From: an uncultured bacterium | GTDB lineage: Bacteria; Fidelibacterota; Marinisomatia; Marinisomatales; UBA1611 | Assembly (NCBI GenBank): GCA_943788175.1 | Contig: CALSPG010000006.1 | Coordinates: 128,001 to 192,000 of the forward strand | Direction of reading: 5' to 3' | Length of the DNA stretch: 64,000 nucleotides | Shown: positions 1,443 to 27,305 of the stretch, piece by piece | Layout: every line of letters begins with the position of its first letter | How positions within the stretch are numbered: the first letter of the stretch is position 1 | Made by a program: the position numbers and the translations under genes | The notes under the pieces: model-generated | The model's input: only the letters and a program-made list of their open reading frames with translations | The model's database searches: none | What the model was told of the DNA's origin: nothing

Positions 1443-1781
1443 TTACCCATTAATCTTACAACATCTCGGAAGCTTGTTGTAGGCTTCTTTGAGAGCCATC
1501 GTTTCATTTGCTTGGTAGCCTGCTATTGATATTTGTGTTTCGATTTGAGCCAGAGAAACTTTTTGTGGATTAAAATAAACTTTACCATTTTTATTCTCAA
1601 GGTCAACTTTTACTTTTAATACTCCATCAGTCTTTGAAAAGGCATCCACAATGTTTGTCTCGCACATACCACACATTATCGTCGGAAGCGAAATATTAGC
1701 TTCCTCAGCATTTGTAGAAACTGAACAATTTAGCAGGGTAAAACCTATAACAATTAACAAAATATCTAATTTAAACTTCAT
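1443..1781 (-). CDS. Exported heavy-metal-associated (HMA, CopZ/MerP-like) protein
   Basis: MCGMC (CxxC) HMA motif, C-terminal LPRCC and a signal peptide. Start placed at MKFKL (1781) because GAGGA precedes it. Confidence 0.85.
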   Translation of the reverse strand: MKFKLDILLIVIGFTLLNCSVSTNAEEANISLPTIMCGMCETNIVDAFSKTDGVLKVKVDLENKNGKVYFNPQKVSLAQIETQISIAGYQANETMALKEAYNKLPRCCKING

Positions 1782-1855
1782 TTTTATCCTCACTTTTTTA
1801 TAAAACACTTAAAAAACTTTAAATAACCAATTATAATTTTAGCAATAAAAATACT

Positions 1856-13005: not shown

Positions 13006-13773
13006 GTGGAATATTTATATCTAATAATTGCATCCCTTTTTACATCTGCGATATCAGCTATGATTGGTATGGGCGGTGGAATAATTTTACTTGGTATAAT
13101 GGCATTAGTCATTCCAGAAGGTTATTTGGTGGTCGCATTACATGGGATGATACAATTAGTGGGAAATAGTACTCGAGCTTTTGTCTTTAGAAATGCTATA
13201 AAAAAAGATTTGGTTTTTAATTACTTTTTTGGCTCAATTATTGGTTCAATGATTTCTATAAGTATTATCGTTGCGTTAATTAATCTTTATAAAGTTGACT
13301 CAGCTAATCAAATTGCTTTTGACTATTTAAAGCCTCTTATAGGGATATATATTCTATGGTTTGTTTACTTGAGAAAAAAAGAAGGCATAAAAAAACATAA
13401 CTTTTTTTATGTGGGAATTCTTGGAGGTTTGACATCGATTTTTATAGGTGCTGTAGGTCCATTAATTGCTCCATTTTTTTTAAAAAATAATTTTCAAAAA
13501 GAAGAGATTATTGCTAATAAAGCAACATGCCAAATAGTATCTCATCTCGGTAAAGTACCAATTTTTATCTATTACTTTGAATTAGAGTATTCCAAACATT
13601 TAGAATTATTATTACCGCTAATGATATCAGTTTATTTTGGAACCATTATTGGAAAAAAACTATTAGGGCTTATATCTGAAAAAACTTTTAAAAAATTATT
13701 TAAAATTTGTTTGTCTATCATTGCTGTACGTTTAATAATTGACCAAATTTTAGAAACCTATTTATCTATTTAA
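13006..13773 (+). CDS. TauE/SafE family exporter
   Basis: GMGGG motif, about 8 TM helices, internal duplication (GAVGP). Confidence 0.85.
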   Translation: MEYLYLIIASLFTSAISAMIGMGGGIILLGIMALVIPEGYLVVALHGMIQLVGNSTRAFVFRNAIKKDLVFNYFFGSIIGSMISISIIVALINLYKVDSANQIAFDYLKPLIGIYILWFVYLRKKEGIKKHNFFYVGILGGLTSIFIGAVGPLIAPFFLKNNFQKEEIIANKATCQIVSHLGKVPIFIYYFELEYSKHLELLLPLMISVYFGTIIGKKLLGLISEKTFKKLFKICLSIIAVRLIIDQILETYLSI

Positions 13774-15373: not shown

Positions 15374-17158
15374 TTATATTTTCTTTCCTGTTTGTATATT
15401 CCATAATTCCGCGTAAAAACTTATATTGTTCTTCATCAAATCGTCATGTGTACCAGATTCATGAATTTTAGAATCTTTTATAACAAAAATATTATCACAA
15501 TTACGGATGGTAGATAACCTGTGTGCAACTATAATCATCGTACGATTTTTCTTCAAATCAAAAAATGATTTTTGAATCAACCTCTCGGTTCTATTATCAA
15601 CAGATGACGTCGCCTCATCAAATATGAGTATATCTGGATTTCTTACGATAGCTCTTGCAATCGCTAAACGCTGCCTTTGTCCACCTGAAAGTCGTTGACC
15701 ACGCTCACCAATTAATGTATCATAACCATCTTTCATTGATGAAATAAATTCATCACATTGGCTTTGCTTTGCAGCTAGAATAATATCTTCATCTGAACAC
15801 GATTGATTTCCATAGCTAATATTTTCTTTTATCGAAGCATTAAAAAGGAATGTGTCTTGGCTTACAATTCCAATCTTACTTCTCAAGTTTTCAATAGAAA
15901 TATTTGAAATATTATTATCACCAATAAAAATTTTTCCGGATAGCGGATCATAAAGACGTAATAATAATTTTGCTAAAGTAGTTTTGCCAGATCCCGTATC
16001 TCCAACAATACCAACTGATGATCCATATTTAATTTCCATACTAAAATTATCAAATAAATCTGCGCCGTTTGGATATCTAAAAGAAACGTTAGTATATCGA
16101 ATGTCTTGCTTCAAGTTATCTACAATTTTTGGATCAGTATTTTCAGGTATGTGTTCATTGGTTTTTAAAAGGTCAAAAATTCTTTTACTTGACGCCATAG
16201 ATCTTTCAAAATCATCGACCAAAGTTCCTAATGTAGTAAACGGCCACAAAAATCTTTGAGTAAGAAAAACCAGGACACTGTAAGAACCAACCGCTAAAGT
16301 GCCACTCAAAGCCATGTGACTTCCAATCAATATAGTGCCTAAAAACCCAGCCAATACACCCATGCGAATCACAGGCACAAACGCGCTACTAATTAAAATA
16401 GCATTAATATTTTCTTTTTGATAATCCTTACTTAAATGACTAATTCTATTTTTTTCATTTTTAAAAGACATAAAACTTTTTATGGTTTGTATACCTAATA
16501 AGTTGTTGAACACAGAAGAATTAAGCGCTCCGACTTTATCTCTTACACTACGATACCTTGGCGAAAGTTTTTTTTGAAATAAAAAACTAACTGCGAAAAT
16601 AATTGGAACAGGTAGAACCGCAATTGATGCAATTATTGGGGAGATATAAAAGAATATAATTCCAATGCAAACTGTCGATACAACAACTTGAATAATTTGG
16701 TTCATCCCATTATTCAAGAATCGTTCTAACTGGTTTACATCATCATTCAATACAGCAGTAATATTCCCAGTAGATTGGTTTTCGTGCCAACTCAATCCAA
16801 GCCTTTGAGCATGATCATATGCAGAAACTCTAATTTCGTGCTCAACGTCTTGCGCCAGACCACGCCACTGAATCGAGTAAATATATTGAAATGTTGATTC
16901 TAAAGCCCAAATTACAAAAGTGATTATACCTAAAAATATTACCTGACTTTCAATTGAACTAAAACCCAAAGAAGCAACAAAACTATTTTCCTTTTCGACC
17001 ACTAGATCTACAGCAACGCCTATTAGTACCTCAGGTGCTATATCAAAAATTTTATTTAAAACCGAGCATGTGGACGCAAATATGGCTTTGCCTCTCCAGG
17101 GATAGATGTAACGAATTAATTCGCTAAAAGAATTTGCTGAGCTATGATTAAGTTTCAT
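15374..17158 (-). CDS. ABC exporter, fused permease/ATPase
   Basis: TM domain, Walker A GDTGSGKT, LSGGQ and DEATS. Confidence 0.93.
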   Translation of the reverse strand: MKLNHSSANSFSELIRYIYPWRGKAIFASTCSVLNKIFDIAPEVLIGVAVDLVVEKENSFVASLGFSSIESQVIFLGIITFVIWALESTFQYIYSIQWRGLAQDVEHEIRVSAYDHAQRLGLSWHENQSTGNITAVLNDDVNQLERFLNNGMNQIIQVVVSTVCIGIIFFYISPIIASIAVLPVPIIFAVSFLFQKKLSPRYRSVRDKVGALNSSVFNNLLGIQTIKSFMSFKNEKNRISHLSKDYQKENINAILISSAFVPVIRMGVLAGFLGTILIGSHMALSGTLAVGSYSVLVFLTQRFLWPFTTLGTLVDDFERSMASSKRIFDLLKTNEHIPENTDPKIVDNLKQDIRYTNVSFRYPNGADLFDNFSMEIKYGSSVGIVGDTGSGKTTLAKLLLRLYDPLSGKIFIGDNNISNISIENLRSKIGIVSQDTFLFNASIKENISYGNQSCSDEDIILAAKQSQCDEFISSMKDGYDTLIGERGQRLSGGQRQRLAIARAIVRNPDILIFDEATSSVDNRTERLIQKSFFDLKKNRTMIIVAHRLSTIRNCDNIFVIKDSKIHESGTHDDLMKNNISFYAELWNIQTGKKI

Positions 17159-21826: not shown

Positions 21827-22600
21827 ATGACAAAAAAGAAAGATATAGCTTTTGATTGGCTAAGAAGATATACTGGCACGAACCCTAAAGATTATGGAGA
21901 TTGGATACTTTTAACAAATTTTCATAATTATGTAGAAAAATTTTCAGAGCGATTTGGTTGTGAAATAAATGGAATTGGTGGACCGATGACATCTTCAGTT
22001 AATTCGAATGGCCTTGGTATTATCAATTTTGGTATTGGTAGCGCAAATGCAGCTACTATTATGGATTTACTATCTTCAATCAATCCTAAGGGAATACTCT
22101 TCCTTGGAAAATGTGGCGGGTTAAAGAAGACAACCGATATTGGGAACTTCATACTTCCAATCGCAGCAATTCGAGGTGAAGGAACTAGCGATGATTATTT
22201 TCCCAAAGAAGTACCAGCAATGCCTTCATTCAAACTTCATAAATATGTTTCTGATATATTAGTTGAAAGAAAAATTGAATATAGGACAGGTGTTATCTAT
22301 TCAACGAATCGAAGGGTATGGGAACATGATAACAAGTTTAAAAAATATTTGAGAAAAATAAGAGTCATGGGAATTGATATGGAGACTGCGACGTTATTTA
22401 TAACTGGATTTTCGAATGAAATTAATAGAGGCGCTTTGTTACTAGTCAGTGATACTCCAATGATTCCAGAAGGAATAAAAACAGAAGAAAAAGATAGAGA
22501 TGTTACTCAAAAATACGTCGATTTACATATTGACATGGGCATTGAAGCGATGACAAAAATTGGAGATGAAGGCGAGAAAATCAAGCACTTCAAATATTGA
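21827..22600 (+). CDS. amn: AMP nucleosidase (short form)
   Basis: WLRRYTG, ILLTNF, GKCGGL, AIRGEGTS and IDMETAT. Confidence 0.9.
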   Translation: MTKKKDIAFDWLRRYTGTNPKDYGDWILLTNFHNYVEKFSERFGCEINGIGGPMTSSVNSNGLGIINFGIGSANAATIMDLLSSINPKGILFLGKCGGLKKTTDIGNFILPIAAIRGEGTSDDYFPKEVPAMPSFKLHKYVSDILVERKIEYRTGVIYSTNRRVWEHDNKFKKYLRKIRVMGIDMETATLFITGFSNEINRGALLLVSDTPMIPEGIKTEEKDRDVTQKYVDLHIDMGIEAMTKIGDEGEKIKHFKY

Positions 22601-22606
22601 TTAGAA

Positions 22607-22741
22607 TTAGCTAGCGCAGCAACAATTACTCTTACAGCAATTTCGAGCACAACCGCTCATACACGATTGACCTTTATTACAGCAGATACAATCACATCCG
22701 CCGTCACAACATTTACAACCTTTTGAACAACAGTTATTCAT
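22607..22741 (-). CDS. Small Cys-rich metallothionein-like protein (44 aa; not in ORF track)
   Basis: Own translation MNNCCSKGCKCCDGGCDCICCNKGQSCMSGCARNCCKSNCCCAS*: 16 Cys, no His or aromatic residues. RBS-like AAGAAAGGAA lies just upstream of the ATG. The ORF fills the intergenic gap. Confidence 0.85.
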   Translation of the reverse strand: MNNCCSKGCKCCDGGCDCICCNKGQSCMSGCARNCCKSNCCCAS

Positions 22742-22775
22742 AACGTTCCTTTCTTAAGATTCAATAAATAAAATT

Positions 22776-24245
22776 TCAATCCTGCCTATCACAATTTTCT
22801 TCTAAGAATACTTCCCAAGCCTCGCTGGTATCAAAAACAAAAACCATATCACCTCCAACAACGACCTCTATTGGAAATTGTAAAATAGGCTCTCTTTCAT
22901 AGTTCGGATTTTCTTCATAGAATCTTCGAATTAATCCCCAGCTAGGCTCATCATCTGCACTTAATATTTCTACAGTTGATTCATCTGGCAATATAAACGT
23001 AATCGGATAGACATATTCATAACAATCATATCCTTCATCCTCTTCATTCTCTACTTCACGACATTCCTCTTTAGCAGAGACCATCTCCTCTTCACTATTA
23101 ATGATTTGAGTTTCAGTTCCTTCCTCAGTTCTATAAGTAATTTCTACAGGATATTGTAAAGAAGGTCTCTCATCAGATTCAGGGTTATCATCATACCAAG
23201 ATTTGTATTCAGCCCAGCTTTCTTCATCATCAGCAGAAATTTCAATTGTTGCACTATCAGGCATTAGATATGAAACTGGATATACTAACTCAAAGCATTC
23301 GCGTTCTTCCCAGTCGTCATAATACTCGCCCCACATTTCACGACATTCCTCTTTCGCTTCTATCATCTCATCTTCACTGTTAATTGTGACTATTCTTTGA
23401 TCCTGAGTACCCTCGTCTACATCAATTTCATAGATAATGTCTACTGGATATTGAAGAGAAGGCCTTTCATCAGAATTAGAGTTGTCATCATACCAAGATT
23501 TTAATTCAGTCCAACTTTCTTCATCATCAGCAGAAATTTCAATTGTTGTACCATCAGGCATTAGGTAGTTCACTGGATATAAAATAGAAAAACAATTTTT
23601 GTTTTTATCCCAATCTCTTCCTTGGCCGTAACAATTTTTATATGTTTCCTCTAATCTTTCATCACTATCAATAGTAATTAATTCACCATCATTATCGGTT
23701 ATATTAATAGGATAAACAACCGATACATCTTCATCAACCTCATAAGCTTCATAATATTCTTTTATAGATTCTTCATCTTCAAAGGTATACGTGTTGCCAA
23801 TAGGAGTAGTCACCGTTATCGGAAATTCAATACTAAAACATTCCCAGTCTCTCTTATCTCTAGATTCACCTCTGCTGTAATAATCATCCTCATCAAACCG
23901 ATAGTCTTTTTCATATTCTGAATAATCTAGTTTTTTACCCTCTACGTCAAAATATAATTCACTGCGCTTTCCTAAACGTCCAGGTCTCCCAGCTATAGAT
24001 ACTTCGTAACCAAGATTTGAAGCTTTTAGGGATTGCAAATGATAATATTCAGATAAATAATTATCTTCCATCGTAGATTTTGCTGAAGATGGTAGACCAT
24101 CCATCTCAACCTCTATTTTATCATCAGCATCAATAATTGCTTGAATCAATTCTGCATCAGATAAACCTTGAGGCTCATCTTTAGCACATCCAGCAAAAAA
24201 GAATGTTATAATAGTAAAAATAAAAACTTTTTTAAAATGGTCCAT
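22776..24245 (-). CDS. Very acidic lipoprotein with PepSY-like N-domain and four Cys-bounded internal repeats
   Basis: Lipobox FAGC; ELYFDVEG; four units starting C(F/Y)xxx(F/Y)P and ending xxxC; units 2 and 3 are similar even at DNA level. Confidence 0.8.
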   Translation of the reverse strand: MDHFKKVFIFTIITFFFAGCAKDEPQGLSDAELIQAIIDADDKIEVEMDGLPSSAKSTMEDNYLSEYYHLQSLKASNLGYEVSIAGRPGRLGKRSELYFDVEGKKLDYSEYEKDYRFDEDDYYSRGESRDKRDWECFSIEFPITVTTPIGNTYTFEDEESIKEYYEAYEVDEDVSVVYPINITDNDGELITIDSDERLEETYKNCYGQGRDWDKNKNCFSILYPVNYLMPDGTTIEISADDEESWTELKSWYDDNSNSDERPSLQYPVDIIYEIDVDEGTQDQRIVTINSEDEMIEAKEECREMWGEYYDDWEERECFELVYPVSYLMPDSATIEISADDEESWAEYKSWYDDNPESDERPSLQYPVEITYRTEEGTETQIINSEEEMVSAKEECREVENEEDEGYDCYEYVYPITFILPDESTVEILSADDEPSWGLIRRFYEENPNYEREPILQFPIEVVVGGDMVFVFDTSEAWEVFLEENCDRQD

Positions 24246-24424
24246 AATGTTTTCCTTTAAGACTAAGCAAAATAAATGTTTAAAATGTAAATTTGTTCCA
24301 AAACAAAAATTCTATATGTTTACTAAACACAAGATAATCGTTAATTTAATGCTTTATAATTACCCTATTCAATATAATATAAATCATACCTTACCGCACT
24401 AACAGTATTTTATTTTCTTCGTAT

Positions 24425-26695
24425 ATGTTTATTAAAAATCGTATTTCATTATTATTACTATTATTATCTGTCTTAAACGCTGAACCTACTGGATTTGTAA
24501 AAGGAAAAATTATCGATATTAATAGTCAATTACCTCTAGTAGGCGCAAACATTGTAATTAAATCTACTTCATTAGGTACTATATCAGATGAAGATGGATA
24601 TTTTTCAATTGAAGATATTCCAAACGGAAATTATTCTATATCAGCGAGCTATATAGGTTATAAGACTGTTTATTTATCTGATATCTGGGTGCGACCTAAC
24701 GCCTATGATTTTTTAAACGTTAAGCTAGAGCAATCAGTTATTCAGATTGATGATATCACTGTTGAAGAAAATTTTTTTAAAAAATCTCTAGTAAATGAAT
24801 TTCAATCTGTTTCATTTAATCGCGATGATATGAGGCGTTCTCCCGGGTCAGGACAAGAAATAACTAGAATTATTAATACACTTCCTAGTGTTGCTAGCGT
24901 TGGCGAGAATAGACAAGATATGATGGTACGTGGTGGAGGACCTACAGAAAACGGGTTTTTAATAGATAACATATACATTCCGAGTATTTCTCATTTTCAG
25001 CAGGCAGATGGAAGATCAAACGGACCAGTCGGGATTATTAATACAGACATGGTAGAAAATTTAGATTTTTATAGTAATGGTTTTTCATCAAAATATGGGA
25101 ATAAGCTATCAAGCTTTGGTGATATTACATACCGTTCAGGTAATAGAGAAAAAAGTGAAGGATATGGACTCCTTGGGATGGGTGGTCTTGGTTTTTTGAT
25201 AGAAGGGCCTGTCTCTAATAAGGTAAGTTACATTACATCATTCAGAATGAGCTATCTTGATATAATTGCTGATGCAATTAATGCTAGTGGCGGAATGCCT
25301 TCTTATAATGATTTTCAAACAAAAATTGATTATAAACCTAATATATACAATACTTTCTCTATATTGGTTATTGCTGGGGGCAGCTTGTATGATAGAGATA
25401 AAAAAGGCGCATTAGATGTCGGGGAAAGTGAATATGGAGAACTAAAAAATAATCAGCTAACAATAGGCATTAATTACAAGAGAATTTGGAATGAAAAAGC
25501 ATATTCAAATACCAGCTTATCCATTTCAAATAAATATTCAAAAGTTAACTTTTCAAATATTAATACAGATACTTTAGTTTTCAAGAATATTGAGGAAGCA
25601 GATATATTTAATTTCCGTCAAATAAATCATATTAAAATAGCCTCCCAAACAAATTTAGAATTTGGTTTTGATGCTCAATGGACAACGCAGTATTATGATT
25701 ATTTGCGAAAGTTGAATGATAGCAATATTCTTCTAGATGAAATAAAATTTGACCAAAAAGTATCAATATCTAATTATTCAGCCTTTTTTACTGTAAAGAA
25801 AAATTTAGGCAGAAAATTAATATCTTCTATTGGGCTTAGAACAGATCTTAATGATTATGAGAATACAACTTTAATTTCACCTAGAATTAACTTAGACTAT
25901 GAAATAGTTAATAGTAAAACAAACTTAATATTTAACATAGGTGATTATTACCAAAATCCTCCTGCTATATATGTTGCTAATAAAACTTCAGATAGATTAA
26001 AGAGCGCTAGAGCTAGACAATATTCAGTTTGTCTTGAACACATGATTACAGCAAGTACAAAATTTTCAGTATCAGCTTATCAGAAAGACTATAATAACAG
26101 CCCCATACTCCCAAATTCAAACCTACATAATGATCCGACTTTTCTTTTCGATGAATTAAGAATGTATAATGGAATCGTTTCAGAAGGATCAGCATCATCA
26201 AAAGGGCTAGAAGTTTTAATCCAAAAAAAGAGAGTTGAAAATTTTTATGGATTAATTGGCGGCTCTATCTTTAATTCAACTTTTATCGATTTTGAAGGAA
26301 TTGAAAGAAATAGGAATCATAATTATCGTTATATTTTTAATATTGTTGGTGGGTATCGGCCTAAATCAGATTGGGAACTATCTATTCGATGGTCCTATTT
26401 TGGAGGGAGACCATATACACCAATTAATTTAGAAGCATCGATTTCAGATAACGAACAATATTCAGATGTTGAAAATTTCAATGAAAACAAAACCCCAGAT
26501 TACCATTCACTTTTCGTCAGGTATGAAAGAAGATATAATCTAAAGAAATCAAATTTGATTTTATTTTTTGAAATTTGGAATACATATAATCGAGAAAATA
26601 TCGAAACATTCTTTTTCAGTAAAGAACGAGACTCAATAGAAAAAATACTCTATTTTAGTACAATCCCTGTTGGAGGATTTGGAATAGAATTCTAA
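24425..26695 (+). CDS. TonB-dependent receptor with N-terminal carboxypeptidase-regulatory-like domain
   Basis: Signal peptide; GTISDEDGYF...SYIGY; plug VRGGGPTEN; GFSSKYG; terminal Phe (GFGIEF). Confidence 0.9.
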   Translation: MFIKNRISLLLLLLSVLNAEPTGFVKGKIIDINSQLPLVGANIVIKSTSLGTISDEDGYFSIEDIPNGNYSISASYIGYKTVYLSDIWVRPNAYDFLNVKLEQSVIQIDDITVEENFFKKSLVNEFQSVSFNRDDMRRSPGSGQEITRIINTLPSVASVGENRQDMMVRGGGPTENGFLIDNIYIPSISHFQQADGRSNGPVGIINTDMVENLDFYSNGFSSKYGNKLSSFGDITYRSGNREKSEGYGLLGMGGLGFLIEGPVSNKVSYITSFRMSYLDIIADAINASGGMPSYNDFQTKIDYKPNIYNTFSILVIAGGSLYDRDKKGALDVGESEYGELKNNQLTIGINYKRIWNEKAYSNTSLSISNKYSKVNFSNINTDTLVFKNIEEADIFNFRQINHIKIASQTNLEFGFDAQWTTQYYDYLRKLNDSNILLDEIKFDQKVSISNYSAFFTVKKNLGRKLISSIGLRTDLNDYENTTLISPRINLDYEIVNSKTNLIFNIGDYYQNPPAIYVANKTSDRLKSARARQYSVCLEHMITASTKFSVSAYQKDYNNSPILPNSNLHNDPTFLFDELRMYNGIVSEGSASSKGLEVLIQKKRVENFYGLIGGSIFNSTFIDFEGIERNRNHNYRYIFNIVGGYRPKSDWELSIRWSYFGGRPYTPINLEASISDNEQYSDVENFNENKTPDYHSLFVRYERRYNLKKSNLILFFEIWNTYNRENIETFFFSKERDSIEKILYFSTIPVGGFGIEF

Positions 26696-26696
26696 A

Positions 26697-27305
26697 ATGG
26701 AAAAAAATAATGATATAAACAAATCTAGTTTTTGGGAAAACAGATATGATAAAGGCGAAATTGGATGGGACTTAGGATCAGAAACTCCGGTTTTTTCTGC
26801 TATATCTGAAACATTAAAACCAGGAAGTGTTTGCATCTTAGGATGCGGAAACGGATACGATGCAATTTTCTTTAGCAAAAAAGGATTCAATGTTACTGCA
26901 GTAGATTTTGCAGAAACACCAATCAAAAATATTAATAATATCGCAAATAATTTATCTTTGACAATAAATACTATTCAAGAAGATATCTTTGATTTAACAC
27001 CAAAATACAATAATAACTTTGATTATATACTTGAACAAACTTGCTTTTGTGCTATAGATCCAAAAAATAGAGTCCAGTATAGTAATTTAGCTTATGACCT
27101 TTTGAAGGTAGGTGGAAGACTAATAGGATTATGGATGCCGCTGGATAAAGATATTAAGGAAGGCGGCCCTCCATTCGGAGTTAAAGAAGATGAGGTTAAG
27201 AAATTATTTTCAAAACAGTGGAAGATAACAGAAGACTGCTTCCCAATACAATCAATCCAAGCTCGTAAAGGAAGAGAAAAATTGATTGTCTTTGAAAAAT
27301 TATAA
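26697..27305 (+). CDS. Thiopurine/thiol/halide S-methyltransferase (TPMT family)
   Basis: FWENRY...GWDLG, GCGNGYD, EQTCFCAI and GGPPFG. Confidence 0.85.
   Translation: MEKNNDINKSSFWENRYDKGEIGWDLGSETPVFSAISETLKPGSVCILGCGNGYDAIFFSKKGFNVTAVDFAETPIKNINNIANNLSLTINTIQEDIFDLTPKYNNNFDYILEQTCFCAIDPKNRVQYSNLAYDLLKVGGRLIGLWMPLDKDIKEGGPPFGVKEDEVKKLFSKQWKITEDCFPIQSIQARKGREKLIVFEKL

Follow-up and report, generated by a model that had tools for sequence, protein, structure and literature searches.

The 64,000-nucleotide window analyzed here (positions 128,001 to 192,000 of contig CALSPG010000006.1, assembly GCA_943788175.1, from an uncultured bacterium of the Marinisomatales in the phylum Fidelibacterota) contains a short gene at 22607-22741 on the minus strand that encodes a peptide of 44 residues, 16 of which are cysteine. 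We consider it probable that this peptide is a cytoplasmic thionein that binds thiophilic metals in metal–thiolate clusters. As far as our searches extend, the 44-mer is best read as a member of an undescribed family that is restricted to a single genus. The open reading frame (ORF) is a real gene, and the purifying selection acting on it preserves the cysteines first and foremost. Metal binding itself we infer from the sequence.

The translation quoted in the original prediction, a 44-residue ORF with 16 cysteines, is reproduced exactly at these coordinates, with an ATG start, 44 codons and a TAA stop. Cysteine makes up 36% of the residues and occupies positions 4, 5, 9, 11, 12, 16, 18, 20, 21, 27, 31, 35, 36, 40, 41 and 42, in the layout CC-x3-C-x-CC-x3-C-x-C-x-CC-x5-C-x3-C-x3-CC-x3-CCC. 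Nine of the cysteines form a block at residues 4-21 and seven form a second block at residues 27-42, with a variable linker at residues 22-26 between them. The full composition is C16 N5 S5 G5 K4 M2 D2 A2 I1 Q1 R1, so that the count of His, Phe, Tyr and Trp is zero, in agreement with the claim that the peptide lacks histidine and aromatic residues. The N terminus reads MNNCC, and inspection by eye revealed no hydrophobic N-terminal segment or signal peptide, which had likewise been predicted to be absent.

To place this composition within the host assembly (2.27 Mb in 12 contigs, ~33% G+C, 92% complete), we scored all stop-to-stop ORFs of at least 30 residues (n = 28,375) by the maximum number of cysteines per 40-residue window. 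The 44-codon ORF ranks highest with a score of 16, followed by one ORF at 11 and five at 10, and these six runners-up come from non-genic frames, such as repeats read out of frame. Because the ORF is a genome-wide outlier in cysteine density, a chance origin is excluded. A purine-rich element resembling a Shine–Dalgarno (SD) sequence, AAAGGAA, lies 5 nt before the ATG (22746-22752, minus strand), and its counterpart in orthologues reads AAGGGAA, AAGAGGA or AGGAGGA. The good ribosome-binding site that had been claimed is therefore present and has equivalents in the orthologues, but it carries little weight as an argument because an SD core occurs within 20 nt upstream of just 147 of 789 long genes in the host genome (19%), as compared with 73 of 789 (9%) for a within-gene control. 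SD pairing seems to be little used in this organism.

Evidence for a functional gene also comes from its relatives. In a six-frame search of 40 related genomes, eight of the same genus and 32 of other genera, the ORF was matched in five of the eight congeneric genomes, and each of these five copies has an open frame of 44 residues with 16 of 16 cysteines kept. The genus contains two clades, between which protein identity is 75% and synonymous sites are near saturation. Relative to the copy at L005, the gene of the window shows 18 synonymous differences over 21 synonymous sites and 15 non-synonymous differences over 111 sites. The ratio of non-synonymous to synonymous substitution rates (dN/dS) is 0.06-0.19 in the eight of 15 pairs for which it can be computed, with the other seven having a saturated or zero dS. 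A scan of metagenome contigs added 10 further loci, all 10 of them intact and each with 16 cysteines.

Across the collected set of 20 sequences, which represent nine distinct proteins, all of them kin and some from genomes that entered via two collections, all 16 cysteines are invariant in 19. At seven of the 16 cysteine codons, both TGT and TGC are used. One of the 16 cysteine columns is variable, compared with 13 of the 28 non-cysteine columns (Fisher p 0.007, for sequences that are kin and partly duplicates), and the variable positions are concentrated at residues 22-25, between the 9-Cys and 7-Cys blocks. An ORF that is undisrupted in relatives, with invariant cysteines and synonymous changes, is what the original prediction had anticipated of a conserved gene.

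For congeners without a sequence match, we inspected the same genomic position using the AMP nucleosidase gene (amn), the downstream neighbor in the window, as an anchor. One such genome (G007) carries a 34-residue ORF with 12 cysteines between amn and the gene for a lipoprotein-like protein, which is the upstream neighbor in the window (L026:1386-1487, plus strand). As compared with the 44-mer, the 34-mer has an internal deletion of 13 residues and a different C terminus, and it retains the N-terminal C-K-C-C-[DN]-G-x-C-x-C and the C-terminal C-C-K-x-x-C-C. The occurrence of this 12-Cys form at the same position indicates that richness in cysteine is what is kept. In G008 (81% complete), neither the lipoprotein gene nor a Cys-rich ORF adjoins amn, and G005 (63% complete) gave no match. 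With the short form of G007 counted, the gene is present in the host genome and in six of eight congeners.

Contigs assembled from RNA-labelled libraries also contain the ORF. Thirteen RNA-labelled runs include part of a 2.5-kb stretch around it, and when assembled contigs from four such runs, each from a different study, were placed over the region, the ORF was covered in all four. Contigs from X1 (records 2 and 3) lie at 22628-22751 and those from X3 (records 10 and 11) at 22567-22739, while longer contigs from X7 (record 22, 22565-23226) and X9 (record 26, 22577-23233) span both the Cys-rich ORF and the 3′ end of the lipoprotein gene. Several contig breaks near 22565-22594 overlap by ≤30 nt, as branch points of an assembly graph would, and we infer no 3′ end from them. 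Coverage in libraries from four studies agrees, at the level of presence, with the expectation that the ORF is transcribed.

Neither the 44-mer nor the 34-mer of G007 matched any Pfam or NCBIfam family at E values up to 10, and a profile of the 44-residue family found no PDB sequence at the same threshold. Within the host genome, we obtained no match to Metallothio_Pro (PF02069, the SmtA type), for which a control match exceeded the cut-off in one of 14 control genomes, or to Metallothio (PF00131) and Metallothio_5 (PF02067), in searches where the composition filters of HMMER may suppress weak matches. The claim that the peptide stands apart from known families is therefore borne out across Pfam, NCBIfam and PDB sequences, with all three metallothionein models included. 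Against an index of 5.8 billion proteins, the single sequence retrieved only a 28-residue fragment, and a profile query retrieved four unnamed clusters, namely a form with Cys18 replaced by Tyr (C18Y), a frameshifted form and two 28-residue fragments. An exhaustive phmmer search of 1.84 billion cluster representatives returned one protein, the C18Y form. That billions of predicted proteins yield only four clusters, all of them of the Cys-rich gene, supports the suggestion that it has escaped gene calling. A weak search for longer or fused forms gave 16 candidates, none of which scored. Within the literature searched, we found no publication that pairs metallothionein with Marinimicrobia, SAR406 or Marinisomatota. 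AlphaFold2, run on a 7-row alignment of the 44-mer, predicted no confident fold, with a mean predicted local distance difference test score (pLDDT) of 50; the absence of a predicted fold is expected for an apo-thionein and is by itself no evidence.

Metallothioneins have been defined operationally by low mass, richness in cysteine and the presence of C-X-C and C-C motifs (PMC13578184). The 44-mer displays the three sequence characteristics of this class: with 44 residues it lies under ~10 kDa, it has a high cysteine content with conserved C-C, C-x-C and C-x3-C motifs, and it contains no aromatic residue or histidine, where the class has few or none (the variant P0002 contains Tyr18). The fourth characteristic, binding of several metal ions in metal–thiolate clusters, is putative here.

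The original prediction described the cysteine clusters as eukaryote-style, and the closest pattern is indeed found in the ciliates. Like the 44-mer, the Cd/Zn thioneins of Tetrahymena subfamily 7a have most of their cysteines in CC and CCC clusters, display CxCC(K)-type motifs and contain no aromatic residues or histidine. As described in PMC1808422, the CC/CCC-dominated proteins of Tetrahymena constitute the Cd/Zn-induced subfamily 7a and the CKC-motif proteins the copper subfamily. The same source describes CCC as rare in metallothioneins outside the ciliate group and treats small hypothetical proteins with CCC clusters as candidate new metallothioneins (PMC1808422). Whereas ciliate metallothioneins extend to 162 residues and consist of repeated modules, the 44-mer is a single bacterial unit. 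The resemblance is one of cysteine pattern and is probably convergent; the eukaryote-style description holds for the pattern and probably does not extend to homology. No Pfam model was matched by the 44-mer.

Animal two-domain metallothioneins, including the vertebrate proteins (PF00131) and the Cd metallothioneins of snails, resemble the 44-mer in that about one-third of their residues are cysteine and that Lys, Ser, Gly and Asn abound between the cysteines. The 9-Cys N-terminal block of the 44-mer is a further likeness; the domains of snail metallothioneins are reported to bind three Cd each (PMC7084494). The 44-mer differs from these proteins in that it is shorter and lacks CxxC, and neither PF00131 nor PF02067 is matched in the genome. 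There is no sign that the gene is of eukaryotic origin, and its codon use is TGT-rich like that of the host genome.

Bacterial metallothioneins are regarded as few in number, and those described as functionally studied are essentially of the SmtA/BmtA type, together with MymT (PMC7387436, PMC13578184). These contain ~16% cysteine and often use histidine. Like the 44-mer, SmtA/BmtA proteins (PF02069) are small Cys-containing peptides, presumed to be cytoplasmic and metal-binding. SmtA-type proteins are described as having ~16% cysteine in ~60 residues (PMC13578184), with His ligands and a zinc-finger-like domain fold (PMC10612145), whereas the 44-mer has 36% cysteine, no histidine and no predicted fold (pLDDT 50). 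The absence of a match to the hidden Markov model (HMM), the absence of histidine and the difference in cysteine content place the 44-mer outside the SmtA/BmtA family. Sequestration of Cu(I) in the cytoplasm by cysteine thiolates is described as a mode of copper resistance (PMC11672702). The 44-mer would putatively share this mode with MymT and the Csp copper-storage proteins, from which it differs in matching no family in either NCBIfam or Pfam. A Csp is a four-helix bundle of >100 residues, and MymT has far fewer cysteines and contains histidine.

We envisage that the 44-mer would have no stable fold of its own and that Zn(II), Cd(II) or Cu(I) would be enclosed by the 16 thiolates in metal–thiolate clusters, which would buffer or store thiophilic metal ions in the cytoplasm. 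The peptide may be organized as two modules, with nine cysteines (residues 4-21) and seven cysteines (27-42) joined by the variable linker (22-26), and the 34-residue form of G007 may represent a single fused module. By analogy with the domains of animal metallothioneins, in which nine cysteines hold three metals, the peptide would accommodate about five divalent ions, or a larger number of Cu(I) ions. The CC/CCC-dominated pattern, by its similarity to Tetrahymena Cd/Zn subfamily 7a, would point to divalent metals. The apparent lack of Cu/Zn ATPases in the host, described next, would fit either a divalent metal or Cu(I).

The host genome contains three HMA domains and two Fur-family genes. We found no match in it to Cation_efflux (CDF, PF01545) or to the E1-E2 P-type ATPase family (PF00122), each of which is matched in 14 of 14 control genomes. 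A P-type ATPase was matched in 10 of the 54 genomes from the taxonomic family (44 of 54 having none), and all nine from the genus gave no match, with the proviso that in incomplete assemblies the absence of a match is no proof. The concordance of nine genomes makes it likely that the genus is without the usual CopA/ZntA-type exporters. A cytoplasmic sponge for Cu(I) or Zn would therefore be useful to such cells, which is context for the proposed function and not evidence of binding. Another putative metal protein is encoded elsewhere in the window: a 121-residue protein at 1443-1808 (minus strand) has a lipoprotein-like N terminus, an HMA domain (37 bits versus a cut-off of 24.8), a CxxC motif and a C-terminal CC pair, and it may be an exported metal-binding protein.

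If the 44-mer is indeed a thionein, it would represent an independent bacterial metallothionein family with animal- or ciliate-like cluster chemistry in an uncultured and widespread marine phylum. Its four clusters among billions of predicted proteins would show that such genes escape annotation through their short length, and its 135 bp would be a concrete candidate for studying how marine bacteria with streamlined genomes cope with Zn, Cd and Cu when the usual efflux ATPases are missing.

Several observations weigh against this proposal. Binding by the 44-mer is backed by no experiment and by no metal-related genomic context. The neighboring genes (AMP nucleosidase, the acidic lipoprotein, a TonB receptor and methyltransferases) are not metal-homeostasis genes, and we identified no metal-sensor site near the Cys-rich gene. 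Metallothionein HMMs and PDB sequences gave no match to the 44-mer, and the top hit in a protein atlas, a Metallothio_5 cluster (dipteran-type metallothionein), has a score of 0.78, too low to tell real from shuffled sequences apart. The 44-codon ORF was found in none of the 32 genomes of other genera in the six-frame search, and a phylum-wide profile search of 401 genomes produced no convincing match outside the genus; it gave 13 weak matches (E 0.006-0.6), with a Cys-rich ORF only in L007. Because the genomes searched yielded the gene in a single genus only, a general physiological need for such a peptide is not obvious. In addition, the variant P0002 (a cluster of five member sequences) has Cys18 replaced by Tyr, and in the variant P0003 (one sequence) the tail is frameshifted after residue 33; these two variants may be real alleles or assembly errors. 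The assembled RNA contigs report presence only and give no strand, level or transcript ends, and carry-over of DNA is possible. Two things moderate the significance of the 44-mer: it is restricted to one genus, and no experimental or regulatory link ties it to metals.

Other explanations can be offered for the same gene. The 44-mer may serve in the cytoplasm as a thiol-rich peptide, but chiefly for something other than metal storage, for example as a redox or electrophile buffer, a reserve of cysteine or sulfur, or a ligand for Fe-S or other clusters. The conserved cysteines and lack of an export signal suit this explanation as well as they suit a thionein, the absence of an adjoining metal-homeostasis gene speaks for it, and a TauE/SafE sulfite-exporter-family gene ~9 kb away (13006-13773) provides weak context. 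We nevertheless regard it as improbable, given that the 44-mer contains no ferredoxin-type CxxCxxC, and indeed no CxxC, and that the position and spacing of every cysteine are strictly kept, as would be expected of a cluster with defined geometry more than of a bulk reserve of thiols. The known thiol buffers of bacteria are small molecules. A Cys-derived product that is modified and exported, such as a ribosomally synthesized and post-translationally modified peptide (RiPP), a bacteriocin or a chalkophore, appears very unlikely. Small Cys-rich ORFs do occur as precursors in several RiPP classes, and an ABC transporter with a membrane domain lies ~5.5 kb away (15374-17158). Against such a precursor, the cysteines are spread over residues 4-42 with no division into leader and core, no GG or signal motif is visible by eye, and the only constant partner at orthologous loci is the lipoprotein gene. 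No peptide-maturation enzyme (radical SAM/SPASM, YcaO, LanB/C/M or DUF692) is encoded among the 21 ORFs annotated at 9954-35900, none being present within ~12 kb of the Cys-rich gene, and the 44-mer has no match in NCBIfam, whose models include SCIFF-type precursors. Least credible of all is a chance or recently born ORF without function. The limitation to one genus, the rarity with which gene finders call the ORF and the existence of one frameshifted and one Cys-substituted variant would accord with this, but the cysteine density is an outlier genome-wide, the frame and the 16 cysteines are kept between clades whose synonymous sites are saturated (dN/dS 0.06-0.19), and all 10 metagenome loci are intact.

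A further explanation concerns a group of membrane-anchored proteins in sister genera. The weak match at L007 is a 97-residue protein (L007:1399-1689, minus strand, the same as L067:1501-1791, minus strand) with a hydrophobic N-terminal anchor followed by tandem copies of K-x-C-G-x-x-C-T-K-P-C-C. Such proteins, at loci L067-L076, have between 2 and ~10 tandem repeats and match no Pfam or NCBIfam family. They come from the same bacterial family as the 44-mer and share with it the motif CC-N-K-x-x-S-C-x-S-G-C-x-[KR]-x-C-C-K; they differ in having an anchor and tandem KPCC repeats where the 44-mer is an anchor-less single unit, and in the neighborhoods of their genes. The 44-mer could be an anchor-less offshoot of these proteins that shares their function and is not necessarily a classical metallothionein. 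A search with the 44-residue profile retrieves the anchored protein of G281 (E 0.006), and in the hhalign alignment (probability 44%, E 2e-4) residues 19-38 of the 44-mer pair with one repeat unit across 20 columns at 60% identity. The two also have complementary distributions: the anchored family was found in 21 of the 53 genomes of the taxonomic family outside the host genus and in none of the nine within it, and the 44-residue gene only in that genus. Of 2000 composition-preserving shuffles, 7, 8 and 3 reached the observed local score against three members of the anchored family, but 102 and 34 did so against two others, and all five counts are optimistic because the best match was chosen from 401 genomes. 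Short Cys-rich motifs also converge easily, the genomic contexts differ, and a gene that flanks the anchored locus was not found in the host genome. Homology between the 44-mer and the anchored family is therefore only suggested, and we hold the offshoot explanation to be about as improbable as a thiol-rich peptide with another role, or slightly more so. A version that retains the thionein function is rather unlikely, though less so than either of these: the 44-mer would be a soluble offshoot of the anchored family, and the two would together constitute a metal-buffering system in which sequestration replaces efflux, in a lineage largely without P-type ATPases. Were this the case, such peptides could provide the deep and low-oxygen ocean, where the lineage is abundant, with a biological sink for Cd, Zn or Cu.

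The Cys-rich gene sits tightly between its neighbors, as had been predicted. The convergent amn gene (21827-22600, plus strand) was identified by NF005500 (E 1.3e-112, 375 bits versus a cut-off of 264), and its stop is 6 nt from that of the Cys-rich gene. Upstream, a gene at 22776-24245 (minus strand) encodes an acidic repeat protein of 489 residues with a lipoprotein-like N terminus, as judged by eye; the gap from its stop to the start of the Cys-rich ORF is 34 nt and contains no terminator-like site. Divergent from the lipoprotein gene is a TonB-dependent receptor gene (24425-26695, plus strand; Pfam CarboxypepD_reg and Plug, and NCBIfam), directly followed by a gene for a TPMT/TehB-type methyltransferase (26697-27305, plus strand), which scores below equivalog cut-offs and is related to a family that methylates Se and Te. 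The 21 ORFs scanned at 9954-35900 also include genes for a Na/Pi cotransporter, the TauE-family exporter, a NUDIX hydrolase, a Zn-dependent dehydrogenase, the ABC exporter, an esterase, an M14 peptidase with a type-IX secretion tail, HtpG (by eye), a second methyltransferase, an aldo-keto reductase, cytochrome c assembly proteins and a DEAD-box helicase. No metal sensor or pump is annotated among them. A promoter scan of 22300-24600 was uninformative, with 14 promoter-like sites versus 12.2 expected and no terminators. The inverted repeats in the intergenic region at 24230-24440 are AT-rich and unremarkable, and Rfam identified a single tRNA in the window, far from the Cys-rich gene.

The lipoprotein gene is the sole constant partner of the Cys-rich gene at orthologous loci. 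Its family is found in 77 of 401 genomes across the phylum. Among 30 lipoprotein loci that we fetched, the Cys-rich ORF is next to the lipoprotein gene in five of six loci of the same genus, the sixth (L030) stopping short of that position, while the 24 loci of other genera (L033-L056) all lack such an ORF. Since lipoprotein homologues elsewhere lack the Cys-rich ORF, the pairing is not an ancient operon, and these loci indicate that the Cys-rich gene is a genus-level addition downstream of an older lipoprotein gene. The two are probably co-transcribed, an arrangement that the mechanism proposed above would include. As to the lipoprotein itself, Asp and Glu make up ~26% of its residues. Its predicted model (mean pLDDT 69) consists of repeated β-β-β-α units and weakly resembles DUF2874-type periplasmic proteins of Bacteroides, some of which have been deposited as calcium-binding (best E 0.026).

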